A stretch of 64,000 bases of DNA from Candidatus Zixiibacteriota bacterium (GTDB lineage Bacteria; Zixibacteria; MSB-5A5; UBA10806), in assembly GCA_020348065.1 (NCBI GenBank), contig CP070742.1, positions 312,494 to 376,493 on the forward strand, written 5' to 3'. The notes under the pieces are model-generated. The model saw only the letters and a program-made list of their open reading frames with translations. It was not told the origin of the DNA and made no database searches. This document shows positions 30,170 to 46,320 of this stretch, one piece after another (within the stretch, counting starts at the first letter, position 1; each line of letters begins with the position of its first letter). A program made the position numbers and the translations under genes.

Positions 30170-31882
30170 ATGAATATGTCGATCTCAAAGCAAAGAACTG
30201 TCGAGGATTTCCGTTTCCTGTCGCGTCGAATAATGGAATGCGCCAATCGCGGTATTCCAAAGGTCGAATTCCTTCATGAGATCGTGAAGATCCTGCTTGA
30301 ATTTACCGGCTGCGAAACTGCGGAGTTGTGGCTGAAAGAAAGCGACAAATATATTCATTGCGGGATCGATTATCAATCGGATGCCGCCTTTAAGTACGAA
30401 ATTGCTGATAAAAAAGACCACGATGATGGCGCTTCGTCTCCCTTTTTCGAAGAATCCTCCGTTATCAATCAGTTGATAGTCAACGTGATTCAAAAAAAAT
30501 TCGATGACTCTCTGGCTTTTTTCACCAAAAACGGGAGTTTCTGGACGGGAAATATGAAGTCAGACCTGCACGCCGCCATAAAATCCGGGGAAAAAAGTAG
30601 CGACCAAAATCTCGGTGTTGATAATTCGTATAATTCCCTGGCGTTGATTCCGCTGGTTGTGGGCGATGATTGTATAGGCCTTCTGCAATTTATGTGTTTG
30701 AAAAATGATTATTTTACGAAAAATGATATCGAGCATTTTGAGATCACCGCCGAAACAATCGGCGTTACGTTGGTTAACGAGAGAGCCCAGGCGGCGTTAC
30801 GTGAACGGGTCAAAGAACTGACTTGCTTATATAGTATTTCCCAGGTGGTTGATCGAAAAGGTATATCACTGGGTGAGATACTAAAAGGAATCGCCGATCT
30901 TTTGCCTCCGGCATGGCAATATCCGGAAATCACCGCTGGCAGAATAATACTCGATGACCAGATGTATTCCACCCCCGGTTTTCAGTCCGATAAACAGAAA
31001 CAGGAAGCGGACATCATCATAAATGGAATTCGGCGAGGCAGGATTGAAGTCGTATATCTGGAGGAAAAACCCGATCTGGATGAAGGACCTTTTTTGAGAG
31101 AGGAACGAAGCCTGGTTGACGCCATCGCCCGGCAGGTGGCGCTTATCGTGGAACGCAGAGAGGCGGAAGAGGAAAGATCGAAACTGCAGGAACAGCTCAG
31201 ACATGCGGATCGCCTGGCCACCCTCGGTCAGCTTGCAGCCGGAATAGCCCATGAAATCAACGAGCCCCTGGGAAGCGTACTCGGTTTCGCTCAACTGCTG
31301 AAGAAAAATCCCGGGATTTCCAAACAGGCCGTAAAGGACGTATCCAAGATTGAGGACGCTTCTTTACACGCCAGAGAGATTGTAAAAAAACTCATGCTAT
31401 TCGGCCGTCAGATGCCGCCACAAAAAACCGGCGTGGACTTGAATAAATTGGTTGAAGAAGGCCTGTATTTTCTAAAATCCCGCTGCAAAAAATCCGGGAT
31501 TGCCATAAAACTATCGCTGGATAAGAACATTCCCGAAATCCCCGCCGATCAATCGCAAATCTATCAGGTCCTGGTTAATTTGACGGTTAATGCCATGCAG
31601 GCTATGCCCGATGGCGGCGAGCTGACCCTGAAAACCGAATTGAAAGGTCCCTATGTATCTCTTACCGTTATGGATACCGGTGTCGGCATGGACGAAAACA
31701 CCAAAAAGAAAATATTCATGCCGTTTTTCACAACCAAAGATATCGGCGAAGGCACCGGCATAGGGCTATCCGTCGTTCATGGAATTGTCACCTCGCATAG
31801 CGGCAAGATTTCATTCCGGAGCGAGGTCGATAAGGGTTCGAGCTTTGAGGTCCAGTTGCCGGTCAAGGAGATTTCTCGATAA
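30170..31882 (+). CDS. Cytoplasmic GAF-domain sensor histidine kinase
   Basis: 570 aa with no obvious TM segment. H-box AAGIAHEINEPLGSV, N-box LVNLTVNAMQAM, G-boxes MDTGVGM and GTGIGLSVVHGIV. Confidence 0.85.
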   Translation: MNMSISKQRTVEDFRFLSRRIMECANRGIPKVEFLHEIVKILLEFTGCETAELWLKESDKYIHCGIDYQSDAAFKYEIADKKDHDDGASSPFFEESSVINQLIVNVIQKKFDDSLAFFTKNGSFWTGNMKSDLHAAIKSGEKSSDQNLGVDNSYNSLALIPLVVGDDCIGLLQFMCLKNDYFTKNDIEHFEITAETIGVTLVNERAQAALRERVKELTCLYSISQVVDRKGISLGEILKGIADLLPPAWQYPEITAGRIILDDQMYSTPGFQSDKQKQEADIIINGIRRGRIEVVYLEEKPDLDEGPFLREERSLVDAIARQVALIVERREAEEERSKLQEQLRHADRLATLGQLAAGIAHEINEPLGSVLGFAQLLKKNPGISKQAVKDVSKIEDASLHAREIVKKLMLFGRQMPPQKTGVDLNKLVEEGLYFLKSRCKKSGIAIKLSLDKNIPEIPADQSQIYQVLVNLTVNAMQAMPDGGELTLKTELKGPYVSLTVMDTGVGMDENTKKKIFMPFFTTKDIGEGTGIGLSVVHGIVTSHSGKISFRSEVDKGSSFEVQLPVKEISR

Positions 31883-31898
31883 AGGGGAATTGAATACA

Positions 31899-33236
31899 AT
31901 GTCTCGCGACGAAAAAAAAGAAAGTATCCTGGTTGTTGATGATGCTCCCGACACGCTGGAGTTGCTCAAGAGAAATTTGACGTCTCAGGGCTATAAGGTT
32001 TACACCTCATCCGGGGTTTCCGGGGCCATAAAAATACTGGAGTCCGCGCATATTGACCTGGTTATTACCGACCTTAAGATGCCGGAAATCAGCGGACTCG
32101 ATCTGGTAAAGCATGTCAGGGAAAATTTTAAAAACACCGAGGTGATGATGATCACCGGGTACGCCTCTGTCAACGGCGCAGTCGAAGCCGTAAAAAGCGG
32201 CGCCGAGGAGTACCTCGCCAAACCGTTTACCGACCAGGAACTTTTTTCCGCGGTCAGGAGCGTGATCGAAAAACTTCACATAAGAAGATCGACAAACTCG
32301 GTAACGATCCCGCAGAAATATGATACGTACGGTCTTCTGGGAAAATCAGACGCCATGAACGAGGTTTTCAGGGCCATACCAAAGATATCAAGCTCCAACG
32401 CCAACGTTTTGATAACCGGGGAAAGCGGCACCGGAAAGGAATTGGTCGCCAGAGCGATTCACTATAACAGTGGCCGCGCGTCGTCTCCTTTTGTGCCGGT
32501 AAATTGCGGGGGAATCCCGGAGGGGCTTCTGGAGAGCGAGCTTTTCGGATATGTTAAGGGAGCTTTTACAGGGGCTACCGAATCCCGGGCGGGGTTCTTT
32601 CAGACGGCCGACGGAGGCACGATTTTTCTCGACGAAATAGGCGAGATGAGCTTGTCAATGCAGGTAAAACTGCTGCGAGTTTTGCAGGATAAAGAAGTCT
32701 GCATGGTGGGGGCAACTAAAACGCGCAAAGTGGATGTAAGGATTCTGACCGCGACCAATAAAGATTTGTTCGGATTGGTCAAAAAGGGCGTTTTCAGGGA
32801 AGACCTTTTTTTCCGGCTGCATGTTATTACAATCTCCATCCCTCCCCTGCGCGATAGAAAAGACGATATCCTTTTCCTGGCGCAACACTTCGCGGACAAA
32901 TACGCCAAAGAAATGGGAATAGCCGCGCCCCGGTTCGGCGAAAAGGCGCTGGAGGTTATAAGAAACTACAACTGGCCCGGAAATGTAAGGGAGCTCGAAA
33001 ACGTCATACAGAGACTCATAGTTATGAACGAGGGGGAACCGATCGAAGTCCCCGATCTCCCTTCCCTCATGCGTTTTTCCGCGCTCCGCGAAACCGGGCT
33101 TACGCGAACCCTTGAGGATGTCGAAACTGAATATATCCGAAACGTTCTGGAAAGCGTTAACGGCAATAAAACTCGAGCCGCCGAAATTTTAGGAATCGAT
33201 CGAAAAACTCTGCGGGAAAAGCTCAAACACCGCTAA
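31899..33236 (+). CDS. Sigma-54-dependent response regulator (NtrC family enhancer-binding protein)
   Basis: Start moved to ATG 31899 (MSRDEKKESILVVDD) because the track ORF start at 31779 overlaps the kinase. Receiver domain (LVITDLKMP). AAA+ Walker A GESGTGKE. GAFTGA motif. ESELFGY. C-terminal Fis-type HTH (NKTRAAEILGIDRKTL). Confidence 0.9.
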   Translation: MSRDEKKESILVVDDAPDTLELLKRNLTSQGYKVYTSSGVSGAIKILESAHIDLVITDLKMPEISGLDLVKHVRENFKNTEVMMITGYASVNGAVEAVKSGAEEYLAKPFTDQELFSAVRSVIEKLHIRRSTNSVTIPQKYDTYGLLGKSDAMNEVFRAIPKISSSNANVLITGESGTGKELVARAIHYNSGRASSPFVPVNCGGIPEGLLESELFGYVKGAFTGATESRAGFFQTADGGTIFLDEIGEMSLSMQVKLLRVLQDKEVCMVGATKTRKVDVRILTATNKDLFGLVKKGVFREDLFFRLHVITISIPPLRDRKDDILFLAQHFADKYAKEMGIAAPRFGEKALEVIRNYNWPGNVRELENVIQRLIVMNEGEPIEVPDLPSLMRFSALRETGLTRTLEDVETEYIRNVLESVNGNKTRAAEILGIDRKTLREKLKHR

Positions 33237-33263
33237 TCTCAGGATTCCTTTCGAGAATTCAGC

Positions 33264-33280
33264 CGGGGAAAAATTCCCCG
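33264..33280 (+). terminator. Hairpin after the regulator gene (weak terminator candidate)
   Basis: cggggaa-aaa-ttccccg, a 7-bp stem lying 28 nt after the stop. There is no U-tract, hence the low confidence. Confidence 0.3.
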
Positions 33281-33419
33281 ACGATTCAAAATCCCCCATT
33301 TCAAGAACATATAAATGTCGATCCGATATCACCATCATAATATCGATAATCTATTGTTAGATATGTAATTATAATGAGGGTGAACTGCTCCCTATTCTCT
33401 TTTCTACCCGAAAGGCCAT

Positions 33420-33435
33420 TGGCATAGCAATTGCT
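33420..33435 (+). promoter_or_regulatory. Sigma-54 (-24/-12) promoter
   Basis: TGGCATAGCAATTGCT against the consensus TGGCACG-N4-TTGCW. GG and GC elements have exact spacing and 14/16 positions match. It lies 86 nt upstream of the first start codon of the downstream operon and about 185 nt downstream of the EBP gene. Confidence 0.75.
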
Positions 33436-33520
33436 TTATACCGGTTATGGAATTGAATGGTTTGATTTTCCTCGATGGCAAGGAGATTACGGATTAAAGG
33501 CGACGTAAGGAGGAAATAAC

Positions 33521-33874
33521 GTGGCAGATACTTTTGAATCTGGCCGACTGCGTTTCAGCAGTAAGGAGGAAAATATCATGGCGGATATTATCGAATACAA
33601 CGACCTTTGCACTACGTGCAATTACGGTCCCGATTGCGTCAGGCGTAAACATCACGGCAAACCGGTGCTGTATTGCGAGGAGTTTGAAGATTATCAGCCC
33701 TCCCCCGAAAAATCCCACAGGGCACTCGCGGATTATGATCCCGGCGAAAAGCTGGAAACATCAAAGCTGGCGACGTCGCGAAGCATGGGTTTATGTGCGT
33801 TCTGCGAAAACCAGGATTTATGCACTATTCCGAAAAATGAGGGAGGCATTTGGCATTGTGAGGAATATCGTTAA
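33521..33874 (+). CDS. Small cysteine-rich protein with two CxxC-x(4-5)-C...CEE[FY] repeats
   Basis: 117 aa from GTG 33521 (TAAGGAGG upstream), or 98 aa from ATG 33578 (AAGGAGG upstream). Repeats are CTTCNYGPDC..VLYCEEFE and CAFCENQDLC..IWHCEEYR. I cannot assign a named family. Confidence 0.6.
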   Translation: MADTFESGRLRFSSKEENIMADIIEYNDLCTTCNYGPDCVRRKHHGKPVLYCEEFEDYQPSPEKSHRALADYDPGEKLETSKLATSRSMGLCAFCENQDLCTIPKNEGGIWHCEEYR

Positions 33875-33929
33875 AAATTTCCGGCTGATCGGAAATTAGG
33901 ACGGTTTTTTTAATTTTGAAAGGATTGAT

Positions 33930-34778
33930 ATGAATCCCGTTAACAGCGATGGTAGCCTGAAGAAACTCGCGGAAGAGCGTGACAGCCTGATTGCCATCCT
34001 TGAAAATATTCAGGCCAAGTATGGCTATTTGCCTGAAGATGCATTAAGAGAGGTTGCCACGGAAACCGGCAGGTCCCTGGTGGATATTTACGGCGTGGCC
34101 ACGTTTTACCGGGCCTTCAGCCTTAAACCGAGAGGTCGACATCTGGTATCGGCATGCCTCGGTACCGCCTGCCATGTGCGCGGCGGCCCGGTTATCGCCA
34201 AGGAAATCGGCAAACAGCTCGATATAAAACCGGGACAGACCGCCTCGGATAATGAATTCACCTTTGAAACCGTGAACTGTCTCGGAGCATGTGCCCTGGG
34301 ACCGGTAGTTGTTGTGGATGGCCACTATTTCCCCAATATGAAGACCTCGATAGTTAAACAGATCCTGGAAAAATCAAAACTGGGTCTTGAAGCGATTGAA
34401 ATTGACACCGATCAACGTGTTTTCCCGGTGGAGGTTAGTTGTTCGAGGTGCAACCACAGCCTGATGGATTCCGGCCATCTTATCGACGGACATCCTTCAA
34501 TTCGCATAACCATATCTTTCGGCAATGTTCATGGCTGGCTTGCTTTGTCGAGCCTTTATGGCAGCTATAACGTTTCCTCTGAATACGAAATTCCTCCTGA
34601 TATAATTGTTAATTTTTTCTGCCCGCATTGCCATGCCGAGCTTTTAGGGGCCTCAAAGTGCGGAGAGTGCGGCGCTCCCATGGTACCGATGATCGTCAGA
34701 GGGGGAGGGGTAGTACAAATTTGTTCTCGCCGGGGCTGCAAAGGTCACATGCTGGATCTGGACGGCGTAAATGTTTAA
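33930..34778 (+). CDS. NuoE/HoxE-like thioredoxin-fold [2Fe-2S] protein with C-terminal Cys4 zinc-ribbon-like extension
   Basis: 282 aa. YGYLPEDALREVA...VATFYRAFSLKP.GRHLVSACLGTACHVRGG...VNCLGACALGPVVVVDG. A C-terminal extension of about 120 aa has the pairs CSRCNH, CPHCHAEL, CGECGAPM and CSRRGCKGH. Confidence 0.8.
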   Translation: MNPVNSDGSLKKLAEERDSLIAILENIQAKYGYLPEDALREVATETGRSLVDIYGVATFYRAFSLKPRGRHLVSACLGTACHVRGGPVIAKEIGKQLDIKPGQTASDNEFTFETVNCLGACALGPVVVVDGHYFPNMKTSIVKQILEKSKLGLEAIEIDTDQRVFPVEVSCSRCNHSLMDSGHLIDGHPSIRITISFGNVHGWLALSSLYGSYNVSSEYEIPPDIIVNFFCPHCHAELLGASKCGECGAPMVPMIVRGGGVVQICSRRGCKGHMLDLDGVNV

Positions 34779-34815
34779 TTGATAAGTTAAATGAAATTGA
34801 CAATGGGATAGAATT

Positions 34816-37800
34816 ATGCAAAGCGTAAAATCGGCAGAGGAATTTTTAGACCTTCGTAAAAGAATCATCACTGATCGAGATTTAAAAATTCCTACTATCG
34901 TAATATCGGCGGGTACCTGCGGACAGGCAAGCGGCGCCAACGATCTTATTCGGGTGGCGAAGCGTGAACTTCTCTTCAAAAGTCTGACCGAGAGAATTCA
35001 TCTCCGTATTACAGGATGCCATGGTTTTTGTGAAATCGAACCGTCTGTGCTGATCGAACCAAGGGGAACGATTTATCCGAAAGTCGGGATAAATGAGATG
35101 GTTCGTATAATTGAAGGCATAGACCAGGGAAGAGTAGTAGAGGATCTTCTATATACAAATCCGGCTACCGGACAGAAAATCGAGAAACAAGCGGATTTAC
35201 CATTTTATAAAAGACAAACCCGCACCATACTATCTCAGAACGAAAAAATCGATCCTATTCGCACCTACAACTACATAGAAAACAATGGCTACTTAGCATT
35301 GGTAAGAGTCCTGCAAAAGAGCGATTCCAAATGGATAATCGAAGAAATTAAGGCCTCAGGCCTTCGGGGCCGCGGGGGAGCGGGATTTCCCACCGGTCTA
35401 AAATGGGAATTTCTGGCTAATCAGTGTGACAGCGGCGAGAAGTATCTTGTATGTAATGCCGATGAGGGTGATCCCGGCGCATATATGGATCGAAGCATCC
35501 TCGAAGGCAACCCTCACAGTGTTATCGAGGGGATGATTATCGGCGCTTATGCCACCGGAGCTACAAAAGGAATTATATACGTTCGTAACGAATACCCGTT
35601 AGCTATCAAGCATCTGGTAATAGCTTTACGACAGGCCCGCGAATTGGGGGTCCTGGGCGATAATATTCTTGGAAGCGGATTTTCATTTGATATCGAACTG
35701 GTAAGGGGCGCGGGTGCCTTCGTTTGCGGTGAAGAAACCGCCCTCATAAGATCTATCGAGGGAAAAATGGGCGAACCGCGTCAACGACCCCCTTTCCCCG
35801 TTCAAAAAGGAATAAACGGCAACCCGACCGCAATAAACAATGTCGAGTCCTGGGCTAATATCCCGGTCATAATAAGGGATACCGCTCGCAAATATTCAAA
35901 AATCGGAACCAAAGGCAACTCGGGCACCAAAATATTCTCCCTGGTTGGAAAGATAAAAAACACCGGCTTGGTGGAGGTTCCGCTGGGCATTAAAATCAGC
36001 GAGGTAATTTACGATATTGGAGGAGGCCCGGTCGGCGACGCTAAAATAAAAGCGGTACAGACCGGGGGGCCGTCCGGCGGCTGTATTCCCGCCAGCATGT
36101 TCGATTTATCCATCGACTATGACAGCCTCACCAAAGCCGGATCCATAATGGGTTCGGGCGGAATGATCGTTATGGATGAGAACACCTGCATGGTCGATGT
36201 CGCCAAATACTTTATGAATTTTCTCAAAGACGAATCCTGCGGCAAATGTTTCACCTGCCGCAAAGGCACTCAGCGAATGTATGAAATTCTGGATGATATC
36301 ACGAAGGGTAACGCCGGGATGGAAGACCTCGACCTTCTCGAGGAACTCGCTTCGGTCGTTAAAGATACAACCATGTGCGGTCTCGGGCATGGCGCTTCAA
36401 ATCCGGTACTGAGCACGTTGCGTTATTTCCGCAGTGAATATATAAGGCATATTGTGGATAAGCGCTGCGACGCTTATGTATGCAAGGATCTGGTGGGGGC
36501 GCCCTGCCAGTCGGCCTGTCCCGTGGGAACCGAACCCTGGAGATACATTGCCCACCTGGCCCGAGGCGAGTATGAAGAAGCCTATCGCGTTATAAGGGAA
36601 ACCAACCCTTTCCCGTCAATATGCGCCCGCGTATGCGACCACAATTGTGAAAACCGATGCAAGCTGGGTACCACCGGGAGCAAGCCTGTGGCGGTAAGGG
36701 CTTTAAAACGGTTTATCGCCGATAGGGTTGATCCGGCAAGTTACCGTCCGGTCAGGCAGCCGACCGCTGAAAACGAATCCAAAAAAGTGGCCGTTGTAGG
36801 TTCCGGCCCGGCGGGGCTTACGACCGCTCATTATCTCTCTCTGAAAGGATATAAAGTAACGATTTTCGAGGCGGACAAGGAGCCGGGGGGAATGTTGCTG
36901 GCCGGAATTCCGGAATATCGCCTCCCCAGAAACGTCCTTCGCAAAGAAATCGAATGCCTTTTGGACGAGAATATAAACGTAAAATGCGAGACAACGTTGG
37001 GCAAGGATTTTACCGCTGATGACCTTTTTAAGGATGGTTTCGGTGCGGTTTTCCTGGCCCTTGGCGCCCATCACAGCAAAAGTATGGGGATAGAGGGAGA
37101 AAACGCGGATGGCATTTATCCTTCCATAAATTTCTTGAGGGAGTTTAACTTTAAAGGGCAAAATTTGGCGAAGGGGCATGTGGGAATAATCGGCGGAGGC
37201 AATTCCGCCATCGATGCTGCGCGTGTCGCCTTAAGACAATCCGACGTGGAAAGCGTTACGATCTTCTATCGCCGGTCGCGGAAGGAAATGCCGGCTTTTC
37301 AGATGGAAATCGACGCGGCGTTGGAAGAGGGAGTGAATCTGCAAACCCTCGTTTCACCGACCGGAATAATATCTGAAAATGGCCGTTTATCGAAGGTTGA
37401 ATTTATACGTAACGAGCTCGGTAAACCGGATGCCAGCGGCCGCCGCAGCTTTAGAGAAATACCGGGCTCCGAATTCAGCGCCCCGCTGGATACCCTGATA
37501 GTCGCCATTGGCGAACAGATGTATCCATACGCTCTCGACGGTTCGTCCGGAATCGAGACAGTCAGAGGCGGCGCCATAGCTATCGATGAGAATAATCTTT
37601 CAACCAAACGTGAAGGCGTGTTCGCTGGCGGCGATGTTGTTACCGGTCCCAACAGTGTTATCAACGCTATCGCGACCGGCAAAAAGGCGGCTCATATAAT
37701 CGACTGCTATCTGAATGAAAGGCCGATGATTATACCGGCGGAGAAGAGATTGCCGGAAGTCTACGTGGAGCCCGTTGCCGTCTCTCCTGAAGATCAGGGA

Positions 37801-37992
37801 TCGGCTGATAGAATTGAGCCTCCCAACCTGCCCGTTGAAGAGCGAAAACGCACGTTTGCCGAGATTGAATTATGTTATTCCGTTGAGGATGCCCGCTGTG
37901 AAGCCAGGCGATGTTTGAGGTGCGATCTGGAATTCACACAACCGGAAGTCGAAGAAGATGACTACGTTAAAGTAGGAGAAAATAAAGCATGA
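34816..37992 (+). CDS. Fusion protein: NuoF/HydB-like NADH-binding FMN/[4Fe-4S] subunit + GltD-like FAD/NAD(P)H oxidoreductase
   Basis: 1058 aa. N-terminal thioredoxin-like domain. GLRGRGGAGFPTGLKW (FMN/NADH site). CGKCFTCRKG cluster. Then NPFPSICARVCDHNCENRC (GltD N-terminal FeS motif). VAVVGSGPAGLTTAHYL and IIGGGNSAIDAAR dinucleotide folds. Confidence 0.85.
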   Translation: MQSVKSAEEFLDLRKRIITDRDLKIPTIVISAGTCGQASGANDLIRVAKRELLFKSLTERIHLRITGCHGFCEIEPSVLIEPRGTIYPKVGINEMVRIIEGIDQGRVVEDLLYTNPATGQKIEKQADLPFYKRQTRTILSQNEKIDPIRTYNYIENNGYLALVRVLQKSDSKWIIEEIKASGLRGRGGAGFPTGLKWEFLANQCDSGEKYLVCNADEGDPGAYMDRSILEGNPHSVIEGMIIGAYATGATKGIIYVRNEYPLAIKHLVIALRQARELGVLGDNILGSGFSFDIELVRGAGAFVCGEETALIRSIEGKMGEPRQRPPFPVQKGINGNPTAINNVESWANIPVIIRDTARKYSKIGTKGNSGTKIFSLVGKIKNTGLVEVPLGIKISEVIYDIGGGPVGDAKIKAVQTGGPSGGCIPASMFDLSIDYDSLTKAGSIMGSGGMIVMDENTCMVDVAKYFMNFLKDESCGKCFTCRKGTQRMYEILDDITKGNAGMEDLDLLEELASVVKDTTMCGLGHGASNPVLSTLRYFRSEYIRHIVDKRCDAYVCKDLVGAPCQSACPVGTEPWRYIAHLARGEYEEAYRVIRETNPFPSICARVCDHNCENRCKLGTTGSKPVAVRALKRFIADRVDPASYRPVRQPTAENESKKVAVVGSGPAGLTTAHYLSLKGYKVTIFEADKEPGGMLLAGIPEYRLPRNVLRKEIECLLDENINVKCETTLGKDFTADDLFKDGFGAVFLALGAHHSKSMGIEGENADGIYPSINFLREFNFKGQNLAKGHVGIIGGGNSAIDAARVALRQSDVESVTIFYRRSRKEMPAFQMEIDAALEEGVNLQTLVSPTGIISENGRLSKVEFIRNELGKPDASGRRSFREIPGSEFSAPLDTLIVAIGEQMYPYALDGSSGIETVRGGAIAIDENNLSTKREGVFAGGDVVTGPNSVINAIATGKKAAHIIDCYLNERPMIIPAEKRLPEVYVEPVAVSPEDQGSADRIEPPNLPVEERKRTFAEIELCYSVEDARCEARRCLRCDLEFTQPEVEEDDYVKVGENKA

Positions 37993-38666
37993 TCAATTTG
38001 CATATTAACGGTCTTCGGGTATCGGTCGAGAAAGGCACAACCATCCTCGAGGCGGCGAAATTTCTGGGATTCCCCATACCTACTCTTTGCCACATGGAGG
38101 GTCTCTCGCCCTACGGCGCCTGCAGGCTTTGCGTTGTGGAAATCGGGGAAGGCCCGAGATCTAAACTGGTGTCGTCCTGCACTTACCCGGCGGAAGAGGG
38201 ATTGAAAGTCCGGACCGCTTCGTCCAGGGTTGTGAAAGCGAGAAAAATGGTTCTGGAGCTTTTGCTGGCCTCGTGCCCGCAATCGAAAGTCATCCAGGAC
38301 CTGGCTTCGGCTCATCAGGTTTCCCGGCAGCGCTTCAAGCAGGAATATGAAGATTGTATCCTCTGCGGATTGTGCACACGAATGTGCGAGGAGCAGATGA
38401 TGGCAAAAGCCATAGGCTTTCGCGGAAGAGGCGAAAATAGAAGCATCGGCACGCCCTTCGATATCAAATCGGAAGTCTGCCGTCTCTGCGGCGGATGCAT
38501 CTACGTTTGCCCGGCCTGTCAACTCAGATGCACTTACAATCAGCCGGAAAAAGCCATTTGCGGCGGATGCGCAAACCTGAGCCCGCCCTGCGTTGAAAAG
38601 GAAAAATTCGATGATATGATGTGTTACATGGACCCTTGCGTCGTTTGTGAAATAAAGAAAGACTGA
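37989..38666 (+). CDS. NuoG-N-terminal-like [2Fe-2S]/[4Fe-4S] ferredoxin subunit
   Basis: 225 aa. MINLHINGLRVSVEKGTTILEAA...CH..GLSPYGACRLCVVEI, plus CILCGLCTRMC and CRLCGGCIYVCP cluster motifs. 4-nt overlap with the upstream gene. Confidence 0.8.
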   Translation: MINLHINGLRVSVEKGTTILEAAKFLGFPIPTLCHMEGLSPYGACRLCVVEIGEGPRSKLVSSCTYPAEEGLKVRTASSRVVKARKMVLELLLASCPQSKVIQDLASAHQVSRQRFKQEYEDCILCGLCTRMCEEQMMAKAIGFRGRGENRSIGTPFDIKSEVCRLCGGCIYVCPACQLRCTYNQPEKAICGGCANLSPPCVEKEKFDDMMCYMDPCVVCEIKKD

Positions 38667-38687
38667 TATAAACGGAGGAAAAATACA

Positions 38688-40277
38688 ATGGCAATCACGT
38701 TTTCAAGAATAAACTCCTCGGCAGCAACCCTGACGAAAAATAGAACTGAAGGTTCCATAACGCCCAATTCAGGGATGTGCGTAACCTGCGTTGACGGTTG
38801 TATAGGAATGTGCGAAATCGGGAAATCGGCATACCGGGGCCACGAGGTGATATATCCCCAGCCTTTCGGGGTCATCACCACCGCCGCCGAGAAAACCTAT
38901 CCTGTAGATTACTCGCATTTTAATATCATGGGCACCGCCGTCGGGGCCCACGGTATCGAGGCCGACAGCGATAAGGCCATATTCCCCGCCGTAAATCTTG
39001 AAGTCCATTTCGGGCATGATAAAGGAATAAAATTCCGCTATCCCTGGATAATCCCGGGAATAGGCTCGACCGACATCGCCAGGAACAACTGGGAGGGTCT
39101 GGCTATCGGCTCTGCTCTAGCCGGTACCGGCCTCACCATCGGCGAAAATGTGGCCGGCATGGATATGGAATCGGTCATCAAAAACGGAAGGGTCGTCGAT
39201 ACTGTGGATCTTAAACGCCGTATCAAACTTTATCAGGACCATCAGAGAGATGGCTATGGCGCGATAATAGTACAGGCCAATGTGGAGGATACCCGTCTGG
39301 GCGTACAGGAGTACGCTATTAACGAGTTGGGAGTCCAGGTTGTTGAGCTCAAATGGGGTCAGGGTGCGAAGAATATCGGCGGTGAGGTAAAAATCCGCAA
39401 TCTCAAAAAAGCGCAAATGCTTTATGAACGCGGATACGTGGTGTTGCCCAATCCGACCGACCCGAACGTAATCAAAGCTTTTGAACGGGGAGCTTTCAAA
39501 GAGTTCGAAAGACATTCCAGAGTCGGTATGGTTTCAGAAGAATCGTTCGCCGCCAGAGTGGAGGAGTTGCGCAAGGCCGGAGCGAAATATGTGTCTCTTA
39601 AAACCGGAGCCTACAGACCCGCCGATCTGGCCCGGGCGATTAAATTTTCCTCCAAATACAAAATCGATCTGCTTACGGTGGACGGCGCGGGAGGCGGAAC
39701 CGGCATGAGTCCGTGGAGAATGATGAACGAGTGGGGAGTCCCCCCGGTCGAACTTCACTCCCTGCTTTATCAGTATGCAAAATCCCTTGCAGATAAGGGA
39801 GAATACGTTCCCGCTCTGGCGCTTGCCGGCGGTTTCACATTTGAAGACCAGATATTCAAAGGCCTTGCCATTGGAGCTCCCTTCGTAAAATTGGTCGGTA
39901 TGGCAAGAAGCCCGATTGCCGCGGCCATGGTGGGCAAGACCATAGGCCGCACCATTGACGAGCACCAGCTTCCGGTTTATGTTGAGCGGTTCGGCAACAG
40001 CAAAGATGAAATATTCGTTACCTCCGGGGAATTGCGCAAGGAATTGGGTGATGATGAATTCGAGAAATTGCCCACCGGCGCAATCGGACTCTATACCTAC
40101 TATGAGCGCCTGGCCCAGGGTCTGCGACAGCTTATGTGCGGCAGCAGAAAGTTCACGCTGGAGCATATAACGCGAGACGATATAGCTTCCTTGACCCGTG
40201 AGGCGTCCGAGATAAGCGGTATTCCACACGTGATGGATTTTGACAAACAGGAGGTTGAGGAAATCCTCAAGAATTAG
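38688..40277 (+). CDS. Glutamate-synthase-related FMN-binding protein (GltB domain-2-like, no amidotransferase domain)
   Basis: 529 aa. N-terminal CVTCVDGCIGMC motif. TIM-barrel region with LLTVDGAGGGTGMSPW, comparable to the GltS FMN-domain signature. Confidence 0.75.
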   Translation: MAITFSRINSSAATLTKNRTEGSITPNSGMCVTCVDGCIGMCEIGKSAYRGHEVIYPQPFGVITTAAEKTYPVDYSHFNIMGTAVGAHGIEADSDKAIFPAVNLEVHFGHDKGIKFRYPWIIPGIGSTDIARNNWEGLAIGSALAGTGLTIGENVAGMDMESVIKNGRVVDTVDLKRRIKLYQDHQRDGYGAIIVQANVEDTRLGVQEYAINELGVQVVELKWGQGAKNIGGEVKIRNLKKAQMLYERGYVVLPNPTDPNVIKAFERGAFKEFERHSRVGMVSEESFAARVEELRKAGAKYVSLKTGAYRPADLARAIKFSSKYKIDLLTVDGAGGGTGMSPWRMMNEWGVPPVELHSLLYQYAKSLADKGEYVPALALAGGFTFEDQIFKGLAIGAPFVKLVGMARSPIAAAMVGKTIGRTIDEHQLPVYVERFGNSKDEIFVTSGELRKELGDDEFEKLPTGAIGLYTYYERLAQGLRQLMCGSRKFTLEHITRDDIASLTREASEISGIPHVMDFDKQEVEEILKN

Positions 40278-40398
40278 AAAATATATTAAAAATAAAGCTT
40301 AATCGATATGCCGGGTGACTCGGATTCTCCTTGCCTGGGGACATAAATCCGTAAGTTTCAGATTTCACAAATCAGCCCGGCATATTGATTTTATAAAA

Positions 40399-40427
40399 GC
40401 CTCGCGGCTAATTCCGCGGGATTTTTA
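40399..40427 (+). terminator. Rho-independent terminator candidate at the end of the sigma-54 operon
   Basis: GC-rich stem cgcgg/ccgcg (40403-40407/40414-40418), extendable with one bulge, followed by ATTTTTA (40421-40427). Confidence 0.45.
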
Positions 40428-40510
40428 TGTTTATACGATTACGCGAACTTAGAATTAGTGTGGACACTCTTACCTGTTAGAATCTATTTAGAGACATAGG
40501 AATAATAAAC

Positions 40511-40530
40511 CGGAGAGGCAAGGGTTCGAA
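40511..40530 (-). repeat. Distal direct repeat of the tRNA-Ser 3' end (att-like site)
   Basis: cggagaggcaagggttcgaa here against cggagaggcagggattcgaa at 45324-45343. 18/20 identical in the same orientation. Confidence 0.65.
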
Positions 40531-40675
40531 AACCGGCGATTTTTTAATTTCTTAGCTATTAGTAAATTACTTGGAATCCGTCGCCTGGTAAGGGATTACT
40601 TTATTCAAGTACAGGCAAGTTGGCTCAAGTACAAGCGAGTTTTATGATGTTTGCTGTTGGAAAATTGTTGGAAAA

Positions 40676-41038
40676 CTACAATTCTGCAGTTGGATTGTCT
40701 TTACCCAATATTTTAATATTTCCCTCCCCTCCACAGTATTTACTTATTAACTCTTTAAGTTCAACAAGAGCCTCATATATTTTCTTATTATCTTCCGGGA
40801 TTGGATTTTCTATAACTACGATAGCATTTTTTGTATTAGCGGTTAATTTAGTTCTGTCTCCTTCCCTCCAATTCCAACATCTACAAACAATCCCTTTATC
40901 GTCTTTGTATACTACTTCACCTTCCCATGGAGGATTATTCTCTTCTTCTCCTAATGGAATAAACTCTTCATTTCCTTTAGCAAACCCTATGGTCAAATCA
41001 CCTTCTATTGAATCCAGGTCTTCTCCTTCAATAGTCAA
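40676..41038 (-). pseudogene. B3/B4 (PheT-like tRNA-binding) domain protein, C-terminal half only
   Basis: 120-aa ORF starting at TTG, with a stop 2 codons upstream. The sequence GEVVYKDDKGIVCRCWNWREGDRTKLTANTKNAIVVIE matches my recollection of the COG3382/B3_4 family core. Full-length members are roughly twice as long. Confidence 0.5.
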
Positions 41039-41116
41039 AGTGTCTTAACTAACTATCCACTTTTTCGGGGGAAGGTCAATGCATATCGGTTCCCTTGCGA
41101 ATAAATTAATCTGTTT

Positions 41117-42460
41117 CTAAATATCAATTTTTTGGGAAATATTCCTAAAATGGTGTTTTACAACTTCATAATTATAGTCCTGACAATGCCCAATATTTGC
41201 TTTACTTCTCTCGAATTTTATAATTTCCCACAAGTCGCTTAGGGCAAATATTTCACAATCCTTATTTTGTACCGAATATTTTATTATTTCTGGATCAGAT
41301 TTCAATAGTTGTTCGTTCAACTCTCTCTCTCTTTTTATTCTTTTTAGCCGAGCTTCATCGCTTTGCGATAACCCACTTTTCGATAATTTATCTAAGGAAT
41401 ATTCGATGTCAACCACAATATGAATTGCTATTATATTACTCACATTTACTTTTTTCAGGTCTTTACTTAATTCCACCACCCCTGCTAGACTATGTCCTGA
41501 TAGCAAAAGATCATACTTATAATTTTCCATTATATCTTCAAATAGAATCCCATATTCAGATTCATCAAATTCGCTATTTTTAGTATTAATGAATTTATTT
41601 TCTTTTTTAAGCCGCTCGAAATCAAATAAAGAAATATATCTATAATCAAGACAGTATGCTTCTCCCTTACGCTTATCCCGCGTTGTACATTTGGCTACGA
41701 TTTTCAGTTCGTTACATCTATTACTTAGGGCACTTATCAATTTACTCTTGCCGGAACCTGAGGGGCCAACCAAAATGAAGGCTATTCTACCTAAAGGAAT
41801 AGGAGAATATACAGGATTTATTGCGTGGTATGTTCTTATTGTAAATTCTTGCATCCATTTCAATCTAGAAATATATGCAAGGAATATACCAATAGTTGAA
41901 AATATAAATAATCCAGTTAGAGTAAAATAAAGCGCAGCGTTTTTTAAAAATAAATTTAAGCAATAAGGAAATACTAACATTAACAACAAGTTCGGTATAA
42001 TTAAGCCCCTGCAAAATCTCACGTCGTTTCTATGAATTTTAAGTTGATTAATAACATCAGCAGAATGAACATTTAAATGAGCTCTAATTAAACTAAATAA
42101 ATCAGCGATTTCATCCGACTGAATTTCAAGGCGATTCTTTAGATATCTTTTTATCAAAGGAAGATTAGAATATTGCTGGGATTTTATGAATTTATTCAAT
42201 GTATTTTTTCTAACACCAATTTCTATGGACTTAAATATTTTCATTGAAAGCGCATTATTGCTTGCGCCTAACGCATATGATATTGTAATCCCCAAAATGC
42301 CAATAATTATAAAAAGTTGTGTCGGGATATTATTAATAATCTTGTAAATATTGTCTATATTATTATAATTATAAACAACACATAAGACTATTAACGCTGA
42401 GCAAAATAGCAACAGTATCCCACTAAAAAAGTATTCGGCTATTAATGACTTTTTTTCCAA
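41117..42460 (-). CDS. Membrane-anchored (about 4 TM) guanylate-kinase-like P-loop protein
   Basis: 447 aa. Hydrophobic helices at about aa 6-30, 46-66, 153-172 and 175-197. Then ILVGPSGSGKSKLISAL (P-loop), CTTRDKRKGE (compare TTRxPRxGE of Gmk/PhnN) and LDYRYIS..F. Confidence 0.7.
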   Translation of the reverse strand: MEKKSLIAEYFFSGILLLFCSALIVLCVVYNYNNIDNIYKIINNIPTQLFIIIGILGITISYALGASNNALSMKIFKSIEIGVRKNTLNKFIKSQQYSNLPLIKRYLKNRLEIQSDEIADLFSLIRAHLNVHSADVINQLKIHRNDVRFCRGLIIPNLLLMLVFPYCLNLFLKNAALYFTLTGLFIFSTIGIFLAYISRLKWMQEFTIRTYHAINPVYSPIPLGRIAFILVGPSGSGKSKLISALSNRCNELKIVAKCTTRDKRKGEAYCLDYRYISLFDFERLKKENKFINTKNSEFDESEYGILFEDIMENYKYDLLLSGHSLAGVVELSKDLKKVNVSNIIAIHIVVDIEYSLDKLSKSGLSQSDEARLKRIKRERELNEQLLKSDPEIIKYSVQNKDCEIFALSDLWEIIKFERSKANIGHCQDYNYEVVKHHFRNISQKIDI

Positions 42461-42462
42461 CT

Positions 42463-43227
42463 CTATGTTAACTTGAATTCTTGGTTATCTTCAAGTATTA
42501 TTAGATTTTTTAACTTTAAATCATATAATTCATCCATAATTTCTAAGCGCCTTTTTGGTTTTAAATGAAATACATAAAGATTGCACGACCCAAGATTATT
42601 TTCCCTGACAATTGAATTCAATAGAGTGGGTGTTAAATGACCATCAATGTGAGCTTTTTTTAACTGTGAATTCGGAAGTGAGCATTCAATTATGATATCT
42701 TTCACCTTATTTATTCTGCAATAATTCCAAAATTCACAGCTTGGTCCTGTGTCTGAAGAATATCCAAAAACGACAGCCCCATTTTTAATTATATAAGAAT
42801 ATGTTGGGACCGTATGGCTAACTGGAACTGCCATAATATCATACTCAGAAAAATTATAATACTTTTTTTCCAAAATAGGAAAATAAATTAACGGCGCTGG
42901 ATTAAATTTATTAGTATTCGAATAATCAAACCAAATATTTGAATTAAATATATGACTCCTAAGAGCTGAAATAATCGCTTTAGGAGCAATTATTTGAATG
43001 GGAGTATCGTGATTCATGTCTCTTGAGGGAGGTAAAAATCCTAATTCTTTTATGTGATCCAAATGCATATGAGATATCAACACATATTTTATTTTTCTAC
43101 GTTCATTGATATCTAGCTGTGAGGCAACAGAACCAGCGTCGATCAGTAAATCATTGTTTATTAAAAAGCAAGACGAATATTTACCGGGATAAGGACTGCC
43201 GTTACACCCCAAAATTCTTAAATTCAT
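42463..43227 (-). CDS. MBL-fold metallo-hydrolase, phosphodiesterase-like (class II cNMP PDE / PhnP / YhfI-Apyc1-like)
   Basis: 254 aa. MNLRILGCNGS...CFLINNDLLIDAGS...YVLISHMHLDHIKELG (HxHxDH metal motif). The stop is 2 nt from the next start. Confidence 0.75.
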   Translation of the reverse strand: MNLRILGCNGSPYPGKYSSCFLINNDLLIDAGSVASQLDINERRKIKYVLISHMHLDHIKELGFLPPSRDMNHDTPIQIIAPKAIISALRSHIFNSNIWFDYSNTNKFNPAPLIYFPILEKKYYNFSEYDIMAVPVSHTVPTYSYIIKNGAVVFGYSSDTGPSCEFWNYCRINKVKDIIIECSLPNSQLKKAHIDGHLTPTLLNSIVRENNLGSCNLYVFHLKPKRRLEIMDELYDLKLKNLIILEDNQEFKLT

Positions 43228-43890
43228 TTATACCTCACTATAACTTATATATTCAACCTCAAAATTTACTATATTGAAAATCACTTTATAAATTGCTGTA
43301 AATGGAATATCTTTAATGTGTCTTCCAAATCCACCCCACAAAATAGCCCTAATGAGGCTACTGTGTGTTACGACTAGAGGATATTGAAATAAGATATTAC
43401 CGATATTATTTAAAATGAAGGAATTTAGTCGCAAAAATCCTTTTTTATAACTCTCTATACCATAATGCTCGCTTTCAAAGTTCCATTTATCATCACTCCT
43501 TTTACCATGTAATGATTTTAAAATTGTATTTGAATCAATTTCTTTTTTCGTTAATCAGTAAAGAACACCCTTAGCAACGTCGGATAATTCCAAATAGGTA
43601 ATAATATTTAATTTCATGATATTAGCAATTATTCTACTTGTTTCAATGCTTCTCGCATATGGAGAAGAATAAATATACCGAATATTTAAATGTTTTAATG
43701 TTTCCATTTTCTTTTTTACAGATTCTATTCCATTTTTACTCAATTTTGAAAGTTTAGAGATATGTATCGTTTTTGATTCGTGTTCATTTGTCTGGCCATG
43801 CCTCATAAAATGTAAAGATATTATTCTCAAAGCAATTAAAGAATTAAAAATATTTCGGTAAAAAAAATCTCGTATTATCTTTAATATCAT
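43228..43890 (-). pseudogene. Histidine phosphatase (phosphoglycerate-mutase-like) family gene interrupted by a single in-frame TGA
   Basis: Track ORFs 43555..43890 and 43228..43434 are in the same frame (663 nt = 221 codons), separated only by TGA at 43555-43557. Motifs are FMRHGQT, IYSSPYARSIETS and, after the stop, LVVTHSSLIRAIL. Confidence 0.65.
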
Positions 43891-43900
43891 TCATTACCGG

Positions 43901-43929
43901 AATATATCGGTTATTAATGTTCTTTGCAA
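43901..43929 (-). promoter_or_regulatory. Sigma-70-like promoter for the island cassette (TTGCAA-17 nt-TATATT)
   Basis: On the minus strand: TTGCAA (43929-43924), 17-nt spacer, TATATT (43906-43901). It ends 10 nt before ATG 43890, so the transcript would be near-leaderless unless a downstream start is used. Confidence 0.35.
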
Positions 43930-44090
43930 CAATTATTTGGATTGATTTTAAAACTGGCATGGTGCTTAATTATATATTAAATTAACTTGTTAAAATAATG
44001 AAGATTACGAAAACTCAAGAGGTTTAAAATAGATTTTTGCTTTGATTGTGTGAATATTGTGAAACATTATTATAGATAAATTGAAAATAA

Positions 44091-45224
44091 TTAAATCCCA
44101 ATCTTCTCAATAGACCTCTTCAAATGCTCCTCGGTCTGGTGAGTATAGATCATGGTGGTTTCTATGTCTTTATGTCCCAATATCTTGCCCATTGTAGCCA
44201 CATCCACACCATTCATCTGCATAATGCTATTGAAAGTATGTCTGAGGTTATGAACTCTTGTAAAATCCTCTAGACCTGCAGACTCAGCTACTTTTATCAA
44301 TGCACTCCTCAGTTGATCATTATCCAATTTTTTCCCTGAAATATCCTTGAATATATACCCTTCCTTATCTTTAAAGGATCTTAATAAATCCAAACAGGTT
44401 TCATTTAAATAAAATTCCCGGGCATAGGTCTTGGGCGACCAATCTGGTTTTTCCTGAATTTTTATTAATCCTGCTTCTAAGTCTATATCATTCCACGTTA
44501 AATTACATATCTCACCCGACCGAAGGCCAGAATTCAGAATAAACTTAAAGGCTTTGAAATAAACCAGAATTCGTTTATCCGATTTCGCCATCGATTTAGC
44601 TGTCTTCAAAAAGAGCGCGCATTCTTTTGGCGAAAGTATCTTTGTTTTATTTAAGATCTTTGGTTTGAGTTTTTTGACTTTTTTAGTAGGAATTTTATCA
44701 ATTAATTCATGATTCTGAGCCCAAATAAACGCCGTCCTCAAAACTCCAATCTCATAATTCACTGTCTGAGGTAAGGGTAATTTTTTATTTTTATGATTGC
44801 CATTTTTTACTCCGTCAGCCTCAATTTTTAACTCAATTGATTGGAGCCTTTGTTTTTGATAAGATTCAATATGTTCGGCTTTTATCTGTGAAAGATGTTT
44901 TATGCCTGGATGGAACTTTTTCAGAAACACCAGAAACGTGTTTAAAACAGCTAGATATCTTTTTACAGTATTAGAGGACTTATGCAATCTGACATAATCA
45001 GCGAAATTCTGAAAAAAATCATCTATGCGGATAGACCGAGAAGTAAATCCAAGTTTCTCAATTCTCTTTGATTCTTCCAAAGATTCAACCTGCTTTTTTA
45101 GCTTCCTGGCGTCAACAAGAGTGCCGGCCTTGAGCCATTTATGTCTTCCTTTCAAGGATACAACAACATAAAAGGTCTTTTTGCCGGTCTTATTTTTCTT
45201 GAATTGAATGCTCGCCATTGGCAA
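44091..45224 (-). CDS. int: Tyrosine-type site-specific integrase
   Basis: 377 aa. N-terminal SAM-like domain. Catalytic residues in GLRSGEICNL (Arg), HNLRHTF (His-x-x-Arg) and GHKDIETTMIYTH (His/Tyr). Adjacent to the tRNA-Ser 3' end. Confidence 0.9.
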   Translation of the reverse strand: MPMASIQFKKNKTGKKTFYVVVSLKGRHKWLKAGTLVDARKLKKQVESLEESKRIEKLGFTSRSIRIDDFFQNFADYVRLHKSSNTVKRYLAVLNTFLVFLKKFHPGIKHLSQIKAEHIESYQKQRLQSIELKIEADGVKNGNHKNKKLPLPQTVNYEIGVLRTAFIWAQNHELIDKIPTKKVKKLKPKILNKTKILSPKECALFLKTAKSMAKSDKRILVYFKAFKFILNSGLRSGEICNLTWNDIDLEAGLIKIQEKPDWSPKTYAREFYLNETCLDLLRSFKDKEGYIFKDISGKKLDNDQLRSALIKVAESAGLEDFTRVHNLRHTFNSIMQMNGVDVATMGKILGHKDIETTMIYTHQTEEHLKRSIEKIGI

Positions 45225-45323
45225 AATCCTGTTAGAAAATTATTAGAAATATAGAAAATCGGAGAACCAATTGTCAATAACTATTTTGATTTCAATAGGT
45301 TAATTTGTTAGAAAAAAATAATA

Positions 45324-45412
45324 CGGAGAGGCAGGGATTCGAACCCTGGAGGGGCTTTTGACCCCTACACACTTTCCAGGCGTGCTCCTTCGGCCAGCTC
45401 GGACACCTCTCC
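45324..45412 (-). tRNA. tRNA-Ser, anticodon GGA
   Basis: Hand-folded 89 nt. Acceptor stem GGAGAGG/CCTCTCC. Anticodon stem CACGC/GTGTG with loop CTGGAAA. Long variable arm GGGG..CCCC. T-arm CAGGG-TTCGAAT-CCCTG. CCA is not encoded. Confidence 0.9.
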
Positions 45413-45427
45413 TGTTCGAAAAAACGA

Positions 45428-45456
45428 AACATAATGCCGCCTCATCAATATGTCAA
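45428..45456 (-). promoter_or_regulatory. Sigma-70-like promoter of tRNA-Ser (TTGACA-17 nt-TATGTT)
   Basis: On the minus strand: TTGACA (45456-45451), 17-nt spacer, TATGTT (45433-45428). 15 nt upstream of the mature tRNA 5' end. Confidence 0.5.
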
Positions 45457-45537
45457 GCAACTGATTTTTCTCCTCTTTTAGTAAACGGTGAAATTATGAG
45501 GTTGACTTGGGTACGTCACACAAATACTATATCGACC

Positions 45538-46320
45538 ATGAACAATTTCGAAAGGCTTGTTGAAATAATGGCCAAACTCAGGGGACCCGAAGGATGCCCT
45601 TGGGATAAGGAGCAGGATCATAAATCCCTAAAACCGTATCTGATAGAGGAAGCCTACGAGGTTCTGGAGGCGATTGAAACGGGAAACGACAGCAAATTCG
45701 CCGAGGAACTCGGAGATCTGTTATCGCAAGTTGTTATGCACGCGCAGCTTGCGAAAGAACGAGAGGTTTTTGATATCGATATTGTGGCGAGAAAGATATC
45801 CGAAAAACTAATCGAAAGACATCCCCACGTCTTCGGGAACAAAAAAGGCCTGACATCCAGAGAGGTCCTCCATAATTGGGAAATAATCAAATCGAAGCAG
45901 GCGACAAACAATGACTATTCCATACTTCAGGGTCTTCCAAAATCACTGCCTGCTCTTCTGAAGGCGTTCAGGATTCAGGAAAAAGTCGGCCGATACGGTT
46001 TCGATTGGGACAATATTCTGGACGTGGTCAATAAAGTCAAAGAAGAATTCTCGGAGTTCGAATCAGCCTTAAAAAATAATGAAGATAAGTCGGAATTGGA
46101 GAATGAATTCGGAGATCTTCTTTTCGCTCTGGTTAACCTGGGAAGACATCTCGACCTTCAGGCCGAACAATCGTTAAATACCACGATAACCAAATTCATG
46201 AAGCGGTTTAGATATATTGAAGATAGATTGCGCGGGATGGGAAAAACCGTCTCCGAATCTAATCTCGAAGAGATGGACAGGCTCTGGGATGAATCCAAAA
46301 AAGAGAGCGATCTTCAATAA
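45538..46320 (+). CDS. mazG: Nucleoside triphosphate pyrophosphohydrolase MazG
   Basis: Start set at ATG 45538 (MNNFERLVEIMAKLRGPEGCPWDKEQ), because the track ORF start at 45358 overlaps the tRNA. Two MazG repeats with EEAYEVLEAI and EFGDLLFALVNL motifs. Confidence 0.85.
   Translation: MNNFERLVEIMAKLRGPEGCPWDKEQDHKSLKPYLIEEAYEVLEAIETGNDSKFAEELGDLLSQVVMHAQLAKEREVFDIDIVARKISEKLIERHPHVFGNKKGLTSREVLHNWEIIKSKQATNNDYSILQGLPKSLPALLKAFRIQEKVGRYGFDWDNILDVVNKVKEEFSEFESALKNNEDKSELENEFGDLLFALVNLGRHLDLQAEQSLNTTITKFMKRFRYIEDRLRGMGKTVSESNLEEMDRLWDESKKESDLQ

Follow-up and report, generated by a model that had tools for sequence, protein, structure and literature searches.

The islands gathered in Islander, a catalogue of genomic islands integrated into tRNA genes (tDNAs), are the closest described counterparts of the locus considered here (Hudson, Lau & Williams 2015, PMC4383910; sublocation classes of Williams 2002). 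Of its 3919 islands 1836 fall in the 'T-stem region attP site' class, and tandem arrays at one tDNA are recorded there in 125 cases (PMC4383910). In a stretch of DNA of Candidatus Zixiibacteriota bacterium (contig CP070742.1; 'the window' below is this whole stretch, 64,000 nucleotides (nt) long), the 4.8 kb at 40511-45343, next to tRNA-Ser(GGA), carry the signature of such islands, namely a displaced tRNA fragment, a tyrosine integrase, absence from relatives and foreign composition. It is highly probable that this interval is a genomic island that arose by tyrosine-integrase integration into the 3′ part of tRNA-Ser(GGA). It is an ordinary tDNA-integrated tyrosine-integrase island of which only the cargo is unusual. 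Neither Zixibacteria islands of this kind nor this integrase family is described in the literature that was searched. To our knowledge the phylum Zixibacteria is known only from metagenomes.

The 3′-terminal 20 nt of the tRNA gene (45324-45343) are tRNA positions 54-73, from the T-loop to the discriminator, and read TTCGAATCCCTGCCTCTCCG on the gene's own strand; the displaced copy departs from them at positions 60 and 63. It is the sole other match to this 20-mer in the window with three or fewer mismatches, and two such matches occurred in 0 of 100 dinucleotide-preserving shuffles. A third copy of the core is absent from inside the island at up to four mismatches. The sequence adjoining the left repeat on its outer side, GTTTATTATT, is similar to the native trailer, GTTTATTTTT, of the unoccupied tRNA-Ser(GGA) of a relative (L087), and it is element sequence, not native trailer, that adjoins the 3′ end of the occupied tRNA in the window, a gene identical over its 89 nt to the unoccupied tRNA of another relative (L089). 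The stretch at 40473-40502 has CCTGTTAGAA in common with 45228-45257 in the integrase-proximal arm, with 23 of 30 positions equal, and may be what remains of the corresponding arm of an older element; its significance is marginal (p ~0.03-0.04 for the shared 10-mer), and the candidate was set aside after gapped local alignment with four such arms gave p = 0.07-0.28.

Between the two cores and the genes of the island lie arms of a kind that recurs in an integrase family. The order in the integrase-proximal (P′) arm of the family is core, a TTTCTAAC motif, a promoter-like TAGTTATTGACAA and, immediately ahead of the start codon of the integrase gene, int, a double TTCTAAC. In the window, motifs of the TTCTAAC type occupy 45231-45239 and 45307-45315; upstream of int, a promoter-like TTGACA-18-TATATT (45277-45248) scores 11/12 in a promoter scan. 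The distal (P) arm of the family has a double TTTTCYAAC followed by AACTT-type repeats of ~11 nt, four to six in number, then ~70 nt and the core, and its counterpart in the window has a double TTTTCCAAC motif at 40656-40675, AACTT-type repeats of ~11 nt (TCAAGTAC at 40605 and 40625) and ~70 nt to the core. Six of the seven GTTRGAAAA motifs of the window are within the island, and four of these cluster at its two ends. With a P′ arm at one end of the interval and a P arm at the other, both ends are therefore ends of an element of this integrase family, and of all the evidence for a true att (attachment site) pair in the repeat, the presence of arms at both is the strongest. In another family locus (L107 1534-1900), which comes directly after the host gene cydB and has no whole tRNA, a P arm leads into a degenerate core (GGCGAATCCCAGCCTCTCCG), and this is succeeded by a P′ arm and then int, an arrangement that is attP-like or that of a tandem junction.

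The integrase aligns over its full length with relatives of 375 amino acids (aa), and its catalytic R235, K259, H325, R328, H351 and Y360 are all in invariant columns of a 13-sequence alignment. Related integrase clusters number at least 149 at E < 1e-10, the 120 listed being 50-87% identical, and those bearing a name are from Zixibacteria. Among 29 integrase-family loci examined, some of them near-duplicates, int starts ~100 nt after a tRNA 3′ end in 21. The targets of these 21 are tRNA-Ser with anticodons CGA (five), GCT (five), GGA (six) and TGA (two), and tRNA-Gln with anticodon CTG (three). The window has an int at least 50% identical to those of the family, situated ~100 nt behind a tRNA, together with the P′ arm and a distal P arm with core. 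Its nucleotide homology to two of the closest loci (L082 and L083, 81-82%) spans 44091-45349 only, that is int, the P′ arm and the core. In the length available for the family loci, 6-10 kb downstream of int, a second core was not found.

The course of events proposed is that the attP of an element recombined with the 20-nt core, T-loop to discriminator, of the chromosomal tRNA-Ser(GGA). The tRNA would have remained intact because the element brought a new 3′ end. On this scheme attL would be made up of the tRNA, the P′ arm and int, the original tRNA 3′ end and its trailer would have been displaced by 4.8 kb, and attR would comprise the P arm, the core and the native trailer. The island would derive from a large, mostly Zixibacterial family whose integrases are predicted to target a 3′ core common to tRNA-Ser isoacceptors, and also tRNA-Gln. 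This copy would have kept int, its promoter and both arms but no excisionase, replication or transfer genes, and a compact foreign operon would sit between the retained parts. Anatomy, family membership of the integrase and of both arms, absence from relatives and conservation of the cargo cassette can be observed directly, whereas the integration event, the present inability to excise unaided and the function of the cargo are what we infer.

Base composition sets the interval apart. The GC content of 40531-45323 is 0.316 against 0.474 in the rest of the window (standard deviation 0.034 among 1-kb windows), and its tetranucleotide distance from the rest gives z = 15.9 when compared with 62 other 4.8-kb windows. 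At third codon positions the GC content (GC3) ranges from 0.22 to 0.37 among the genes of the island and from 0.49 to 0.58 among those of the flanks. Every sizeable open reading frame (ORF) between the core copies is on the minus strand. On the left the island is flanked by a sigma-54-activator-linked oxidoreductase operon, whose last gene encodes a 529-aa glutamate-synthase-like protein, and on the right by the gene for MazG. An earlier note on this DNA, made from the letters alone, had named these two flanks correctly, and the AT-richness it had judged by eye is borne out by both GC and tetranucleotide measures. That note had also seen an intact tRNA-Ser on the minus strand, as ARAGORN does, with a tyrosine integrase 3′ of it, which proves to be full length with its catalytic set, and an 18/20 repeat in shared orientation, without a rival in the 64 kb. 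Its proposal of site-specific integration into a tRNA 3′ end gains support from the family loci, the arms, the trailer and relatives free of the integrase.

When the 529-aa flank protein was searched for in 185,579 species genomes, the window was identified as Zixibacteria. One relative (L001) has 91% DNA identity to the window over 30002-40408 and another, a closed chromosome (L002), 83% up to 40396, so that synteny stops in both ~100 nt left of the repeat; the two share the left flank and are without the window's island genes. At the equivalent place in L001 (11858-11877) the tRNA 3′ end recurs without a mismatch (20/20), and there is no tRNA within 10 kb of this copy. To the right of this copy ~170 nt align with window 40531-40690, and then comes different cargo, at least 10 kb with large secreted proteins of the type IX secretion system (T9SS) type and a GC content of ~0.40 against 0.52 in the flank. 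A second tRNA-Ser 3′ fragment, of 16 nt, is present at 15825 (15825-15844) in shared orientation, ~4 kb from the first, the two indicating a probable tandem island array. With its core copy, element end and other cargo, this close relative so has a different, larger and tandem island there. A truncated transposase-like start (MPWKETSVMDERMKF...) follows the second fragment. L002 has neither a core copy nor island genes.

On the right-hand side, MazG homologues 86%, 83% and 70% identical are encoded in three further relatives (L087, L089 and L090, respectively), in all of which the tRNA-Ser(GGA)-MazG-OmpA-OEP synteny is kept and no integrase is present beside the tRNA. The island is accessory DNA, its genes being absent from these relatives (L001, L002, L087, L089 and L090). 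The earlier note had looked to relatives for an empty site, and three of them have tRNA and MazG without integrase. A contiguous empty site, with left and right flanks joined, was found in none of the relatives examined because no two of them agree in what follows tRNA-Ser(GGA). In a further Zixibacterial locus (L006 12256-12420) a P arm and a degenerate core are present in the opposite orientation, ~670 nt after the 529-aa gene. The occurrence of relics behind that gene in three Zixibacteria lineages (window, L001 and L006) suggests an old hotspot. An exact-protein look-up of the 529-aa flank gene product and of the called 375-aa kinase returned no other contigs.

Table 1. Features of the island behind tRNA-Ser(GGA) and of its borders, in window coordinates
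Feature	Position	Strand	Remarks
Host-side flank	40473-40510	minus	First 10 nt like native tRNA trailer
Displaced tRNA 3′ fragment (predicted attR core)	40511-40530	minus	18/20 identical to tRNA, orientation shared
Distal arm (P)	40531-40675	minus	Architecture common to L001, L006 and L107, each beside a core copy
B3/4-domain gene, 3′ fragment	40676-41038	minus	Pfam B3_4 positions 53-174 of 174; 5′ third missing
Membrane protein with guanylate-kinase-like P-loop domain, 447 aa	41117-42460	minus	Guanylate_kin 7e-11; phrog_1815 2.5e-23
Metallo-beta-lactamase (MBL)-fold class-II phosphodiesterase-like, 254 aa	42463-43227	minus	PDEase_II 2e-13
Histidine phosphatase (His_Phos_1, 220 aa)	43228-43890	minus	3e-20 over entire read-through protein; homologue in L081
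In-frame TGA	43555-43557	minus	Within the His_Phos_1 gene of the window
AT-rich spacer	43891-44090		GC ~0.25; position of relatives' HTH_17 excisionase gene
Tyrosine integrase (int)	44091-45224	minus	Phage_integrase 8e-29; probable true start ATG at 45218, giving 375 aa
Integrase-proximal arm (P′)	45225-45323	minus	Conserved in L082-L086
tRNA-Ser(GGA), intact	45324-45412	minus	ARAGORN; 3′ 20 nt are the predicted attL core

The homology of the island to the elements of close relatives ends exactly at the int stop codon. In four of these (L082, L083, L085 and L086; int 78-87% identical) an HTH_17 excisionase-like gene is downstream of int, adjacent to it in the first two and a few genes beyond it in the others, and after it come ThiF/E1- and E2-like genes and many small ORFs. 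The window has the AT-rich spacer at the position of that gene, and tblastn of three HTH_17 proteins against the island found no remnant. The remainder of the island has no likeness to any locus examined except one small contig (L081) that is considered with the cargo. In three of the four relatives (L082, L085 and L086) the ThiF/E1-like and Prok-E2-like genes make up a ubiquitin-like conjugation module, a type that also occurs in defence islands.

What Pfam and PHROGs find on the island ORFs is the integrase, a metal-dependent hydrolase, a guanylate kinase and one family of unknown function; no capsid, terminase, tail or lysis gene is among these matches, and no island ORF has a relaxase, oriT or type IV secretion domain. 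That the interval is a degraded prophage or phage satellite is very unlikely, even though its integrase matches phage integrase families (phrog_1) and both the guanylate-kinase domain and the MBL protein match phage protein families. Structural, packaging, replication and regulatory phage genes are missing, the integrase and the kinase fusion (the sole cargo protein scanned) have no relatives in 2.9 million viral contigs, and the Pfam families of larger family members are ThiF/E2-like, AAA and methyltransferase with no phage-structural family listed.

Judged by its gene content, the island is best described as a stripped derivative in which int, its promoter and both arms are accompanied by a truncated B3/4 gene and a foreign operon. 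Its int is apparently functional, but the missing directionality factor argues that the island probably cannot excise unaided, and this absence weighs more than the two core mismatches. Immobilisation, which the earlier note had linked to the mismatches and to decay of the cargo, is thus suggested by the lack of an excisionase and not by the mismatches, and nor do two mismatches by themselves show the age that was read from them. The truncated gene that had been pointed out is the B3/4-domain gene, of which only the 3′ part is matched. Its sequence together with that of the adjoining arm recurs, 92-98% identical, in three other metagenomes (runs X4-X6), on short contigs that give no information on the sequence past 41036.

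Information on the population comes from a sediment metagenome, run X1, which is the only public run holding this DNA and contains 92% of sampled words of 39800-46200; it was consulted as Logan contigs, which drop rare variants, with 69% of the run read. Chromosomal contigs have a depth of 13.6-16.5, and the contig that includes the host flank and the left core and ends at 41027 is at 15.6. The contigs covering 40998-45353 are fragmented and have a depth of 6.6-8.0, and the contig breaks, at 40998-41027 and 45324-45353, are exact 30-nt overlaps. Depth falls from 15.6 to ~8 solely across 41028-45323, so that the interior is at about half the chromosomal value. For the left 517 nt of the island a depth close to that of the chromosome is required, because the host part of their contig would otherwise need ~20x, and GC bias cannot explain the drop because these 517 nt have similar GC and near full depth. 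Just left of the tRNA, alternative short contigs of 5.8x and 2.9x occur beside the window's 8x path, under a tRNA contig of 20.8x. About half of the population seems to carry other sequence between 41027 and the tRNA, and the left core, the P arm and the B3/4 fragment seem to be common to all genomes in X1. The truncation of this fragment coincides with the break between contigs and the change in depth at 41027. Narrower searches at both ends yielded nothing but the window's own contigs and short alternative branches, and did not recover the other haplotype at 41027. A loose end beside the tRNA in X1 was tried as an empty site and rejected, as it belongs to another organism at 87.8x, whose contig (on L001 15575-15841) has a real tRNA-Ser 3′ end and then the flank of the second L001 fragment (GTTTGATGGTATATTCCGG...). 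Besides a difference at 43557, to which we return, X1 departs from the window at 44979 (C>G) and 46019 (T>A), and the window assembly and X1 are therefore not identical in sequence.

The polymorphism in X1 fits a composite or replacement history, not excision at att sites. In such a history the island would consist of the fused remains of two elements, an older one that left the P arm and the B3/4 gene, and a later arrival or replacement that brought int and the operon, with an internal deletion by which the junction and the excisionase were lost together with the 5′ part of the B3/4 gene. This may be entertained as a tentative but real possibility. It is in keeping with the truncation of the B3/4 gene at ~41038, with the 30-nt overlaps at the breaks and the confinement of the depth drop to 41028-45323, leaving the left 517 nt near chromosomal depth, with the GC3 of int (0.37, against 0.22-0.27 in the remaining island genes), with the end of family homology at the int stop codon, with the tandem arrays and junctions that the family has (two fragments in L001; P, core, P′ and int in L107), and with the recurrence of B3/4 plus arm in other metagenomes. 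The lack of a third core within the island and the failure to recover the alternative haplotype speak against it. A composite origin would refine the explanation by integration and does not contradict it.

Several observations weigh against integration as the account of this interval. The two core copies disagree at 2 of 20 positions, the contiguous empty site is missing, and neither an excised circle nor a restored attB joint is among the X1 contigs, which are poorly suited to revealing such joints. The change in depth is at 41027 and not at the left core, from which it follows that the polymorphic unit is not the att-bounded element. What the cargo does is read from domain-level homology throughout. 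The mismatches and the missing empty site are what favours an absence of integration altogether, with the 20-mer a chance match or decayed tRNA pseudogene in native AT-rich DNA. This is extremely improbable given the shuffles, the family arm architecture beside both cores, the tetranucleotide distance and the absence of the island genes from relatives. The opposite possibility, that the island is still mobile by means of its own integrase, a related element providing a directionality factor in trans or none being used, and that half depth reflects ongoing gain and loss, can appeal to the full-length integrase with all catalytic residues, to the promoter-like site and both arms, and to the heterogeneous depth in X1. 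It is nonetheless unlikely: constant depth at the left core means that there is no sizeable empty-site population, and the missing circle and attB joint, the absence of an excisionase gene or remnant and the disagreement of the cores all count against it. Integration into the tRNA, followed by reduction, is the reading retained here.

The three cargo genes abut, with spacings of 0 and 2 nt. The TTG start of the kinase fusion is backed by a homologue, and hydropathy indicates some four to five hydrophobic helices in residues 1-200, within an N-terminal membrane domain of ~220 residues. A word-indexed search of 5.8 billion clusters gave one non-self relative of this protein, and in an exhaustive HMMER search of 1.84 billion representatives the only full-length members were the window's own and the L081 protein, other matches being to the kinase domain only. 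L081 is a 3.2-kb high-GC contig from the JGI (Joint Genome Institute) with a cassette in the same order as the window's: a partial histidine phosphatase, a 253-aa MBL protein and a 433-aa membrane-kinase, with identities to the window of 35%, 47% and 39%, respectively. Motifs at the active sites are conserved between window and L081 in all three enzymes, RHG and THS in the phosphatase, the complete metal-binding set (HxHxDH, H138, D159, H197 and H221) in the phosphodiesterase, and in the kinase a P-loop GxSGSGKS and a GMP-site TTRxxRxxE...DYR(Y/F).

At the level of domains the phosphatase matches phosphoglycerate-mutase and cobC-type models, and the MBL protein matches PDEase_II, RNase Z, PhnP and a cyclic-nucleotide-degrading phosphodiesterase model, with PDB matches that include yeast PDE1 and B. 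subtilis YhfI-type proteins. Precomputed matches of the L081 MBL protein are to PF23023 Anti-Pycsar_Apyc1 and Lactamase_B_2. The kinase matches guanylate kinase, including the phage family phrog_1815, and PhnN weakly; its domain scores better against phrog_1815 (2.5e-23) than against Pfam Guanylate_kin. In PADLOC-DB 2.0 the kinase has P-loop-level matches only, with E 4e-4 or weaker, and the other proteins have none. An AlphaFold2 model of the membrane-kinase has a mean pLDDT (predicted local distance difference test) of 47.5 and is unusable.

The premature stop that the earlier note had seen in one of the genes is present in the window as an in-frame TGA in the phosphatase gene, but in X1 the base at 43557 is C and the codon accordingly GGA (Gly), at a depth of 7.1 of 7.1, and the L081 homologue has Gly at that position. 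The stop is therefore a variant or assembly error and not a sign of general decay, and the cargo, contrary to what was suggested earlier, is for the most part not decayed, with the stop absent from the read data and catalytic motifs kept in all three enzymes. Recoding of TGA as glycine (code 25) was considered and rejected, as the case is a single one and X1 has GGA.

Most likely, though with low confidence, the operon acts at the membrane on a nucleotide or a compound of the cyclic-nucleotide type, which it would turn over or convert. More specifically, and again with low confidence, it may be a membrane-associated module that cleaves a cyclic or diester nucleotide-type compound by hydrolysis and then adds a phosphate to the product or removes one from it. 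A more speculative suggestion, to which we attach only a small probability, is that it represents an undescribed nucleotide-signal module, serving in defence, counter-defence or signal quenching, on minimal integrase islands. If so, the island might be kept in part of the population because of the operon.

The comparative evidence documents a family of integrative elements that target tRNA-Ser and tRNA-Gln in Zixibacteria, and marks the site behind tRNA-Ser(GGA) as a hotspot at which gene turnover has long gone on in this lineage. The defined 20-nt core with both arms can be used in mapping islands, or as a source of new integrase/att pairs. The cargo operon is near-unique in sequence space and, with three predicted nucleotide-acting enzymes whose active sites are conserved, is a reasonable small target for biochemical characterisation. 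Elsewhere in the window a second low-GC patch (16800-17900; 0.27-0.39 over 1.1 kb) lies between genes for a 1055-aa secreted repeat protein and an MscS-like channel, and has only a 113-aa ORF.

In comparison with the islands in Islander, the one described here has in common with them the regenerated tRNA, the displaced 3′ fragment in shared orientation and the tyrosine integrase beside the tRNA, and its core, in the region from T-stem/loop to 3′ end, is like those of the T-stem region class, while L001 is comparable to the tandem arrays. In contrast to the usual islands it is very small, at 4.8 kb, and is without excision, replication and transfer functions, and its integrase family, unlike theirs, uses four tRNA-Ser isoacceptors and tRNA-Gln. 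With four close relatives (L082, L083, L085 and L086) it shares int, P′ arm, core and a tRNA-Ser target, but the HTH_17 gene, the ThiF/E1- and E2-like genes and the small ORFs are theirs and not the window's, and none of them has the three-gene operon.

For the cargo, the comparison is with enzymes. Class-II MBL-fold cyclic-nucleotide phosphodiesterases include the phage protein Apyc1 (Hobbs et al. 2022, PMC9117128), in which a specific loop goes with relaxed specificity for cCMP and cUMP (PMC9117128). Like yeast PDE1, YhfI and Apyc1, the 254-aa protein of the window has HxHxDH and the other metal ligands, though its matches to them are weak (E 1e-6 to 1e-13, all under NCBIfam cut-offs). A family-level match to Apyc1 was not found for the window protein, precomputed PF23023 being on the L081 homologue only, and in contrast to phage Apyc1 its gene is in an operon with a kinase and a phosphatase and not in a phage. 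The kinase has the P-loop and GMP-site motifs of guanylate kinases such as phrog_1815, but differs from them in its fusion to an N-terminal membrane domain and in scores far under equivalog cut-offs. An MBL phosphodiesterase beside a P-loop kinase loosely recalls PhnP and PhnN of the carbon-phosphorus (C-P) lyase pathway, to both of which there are weak NCBIfam matches.

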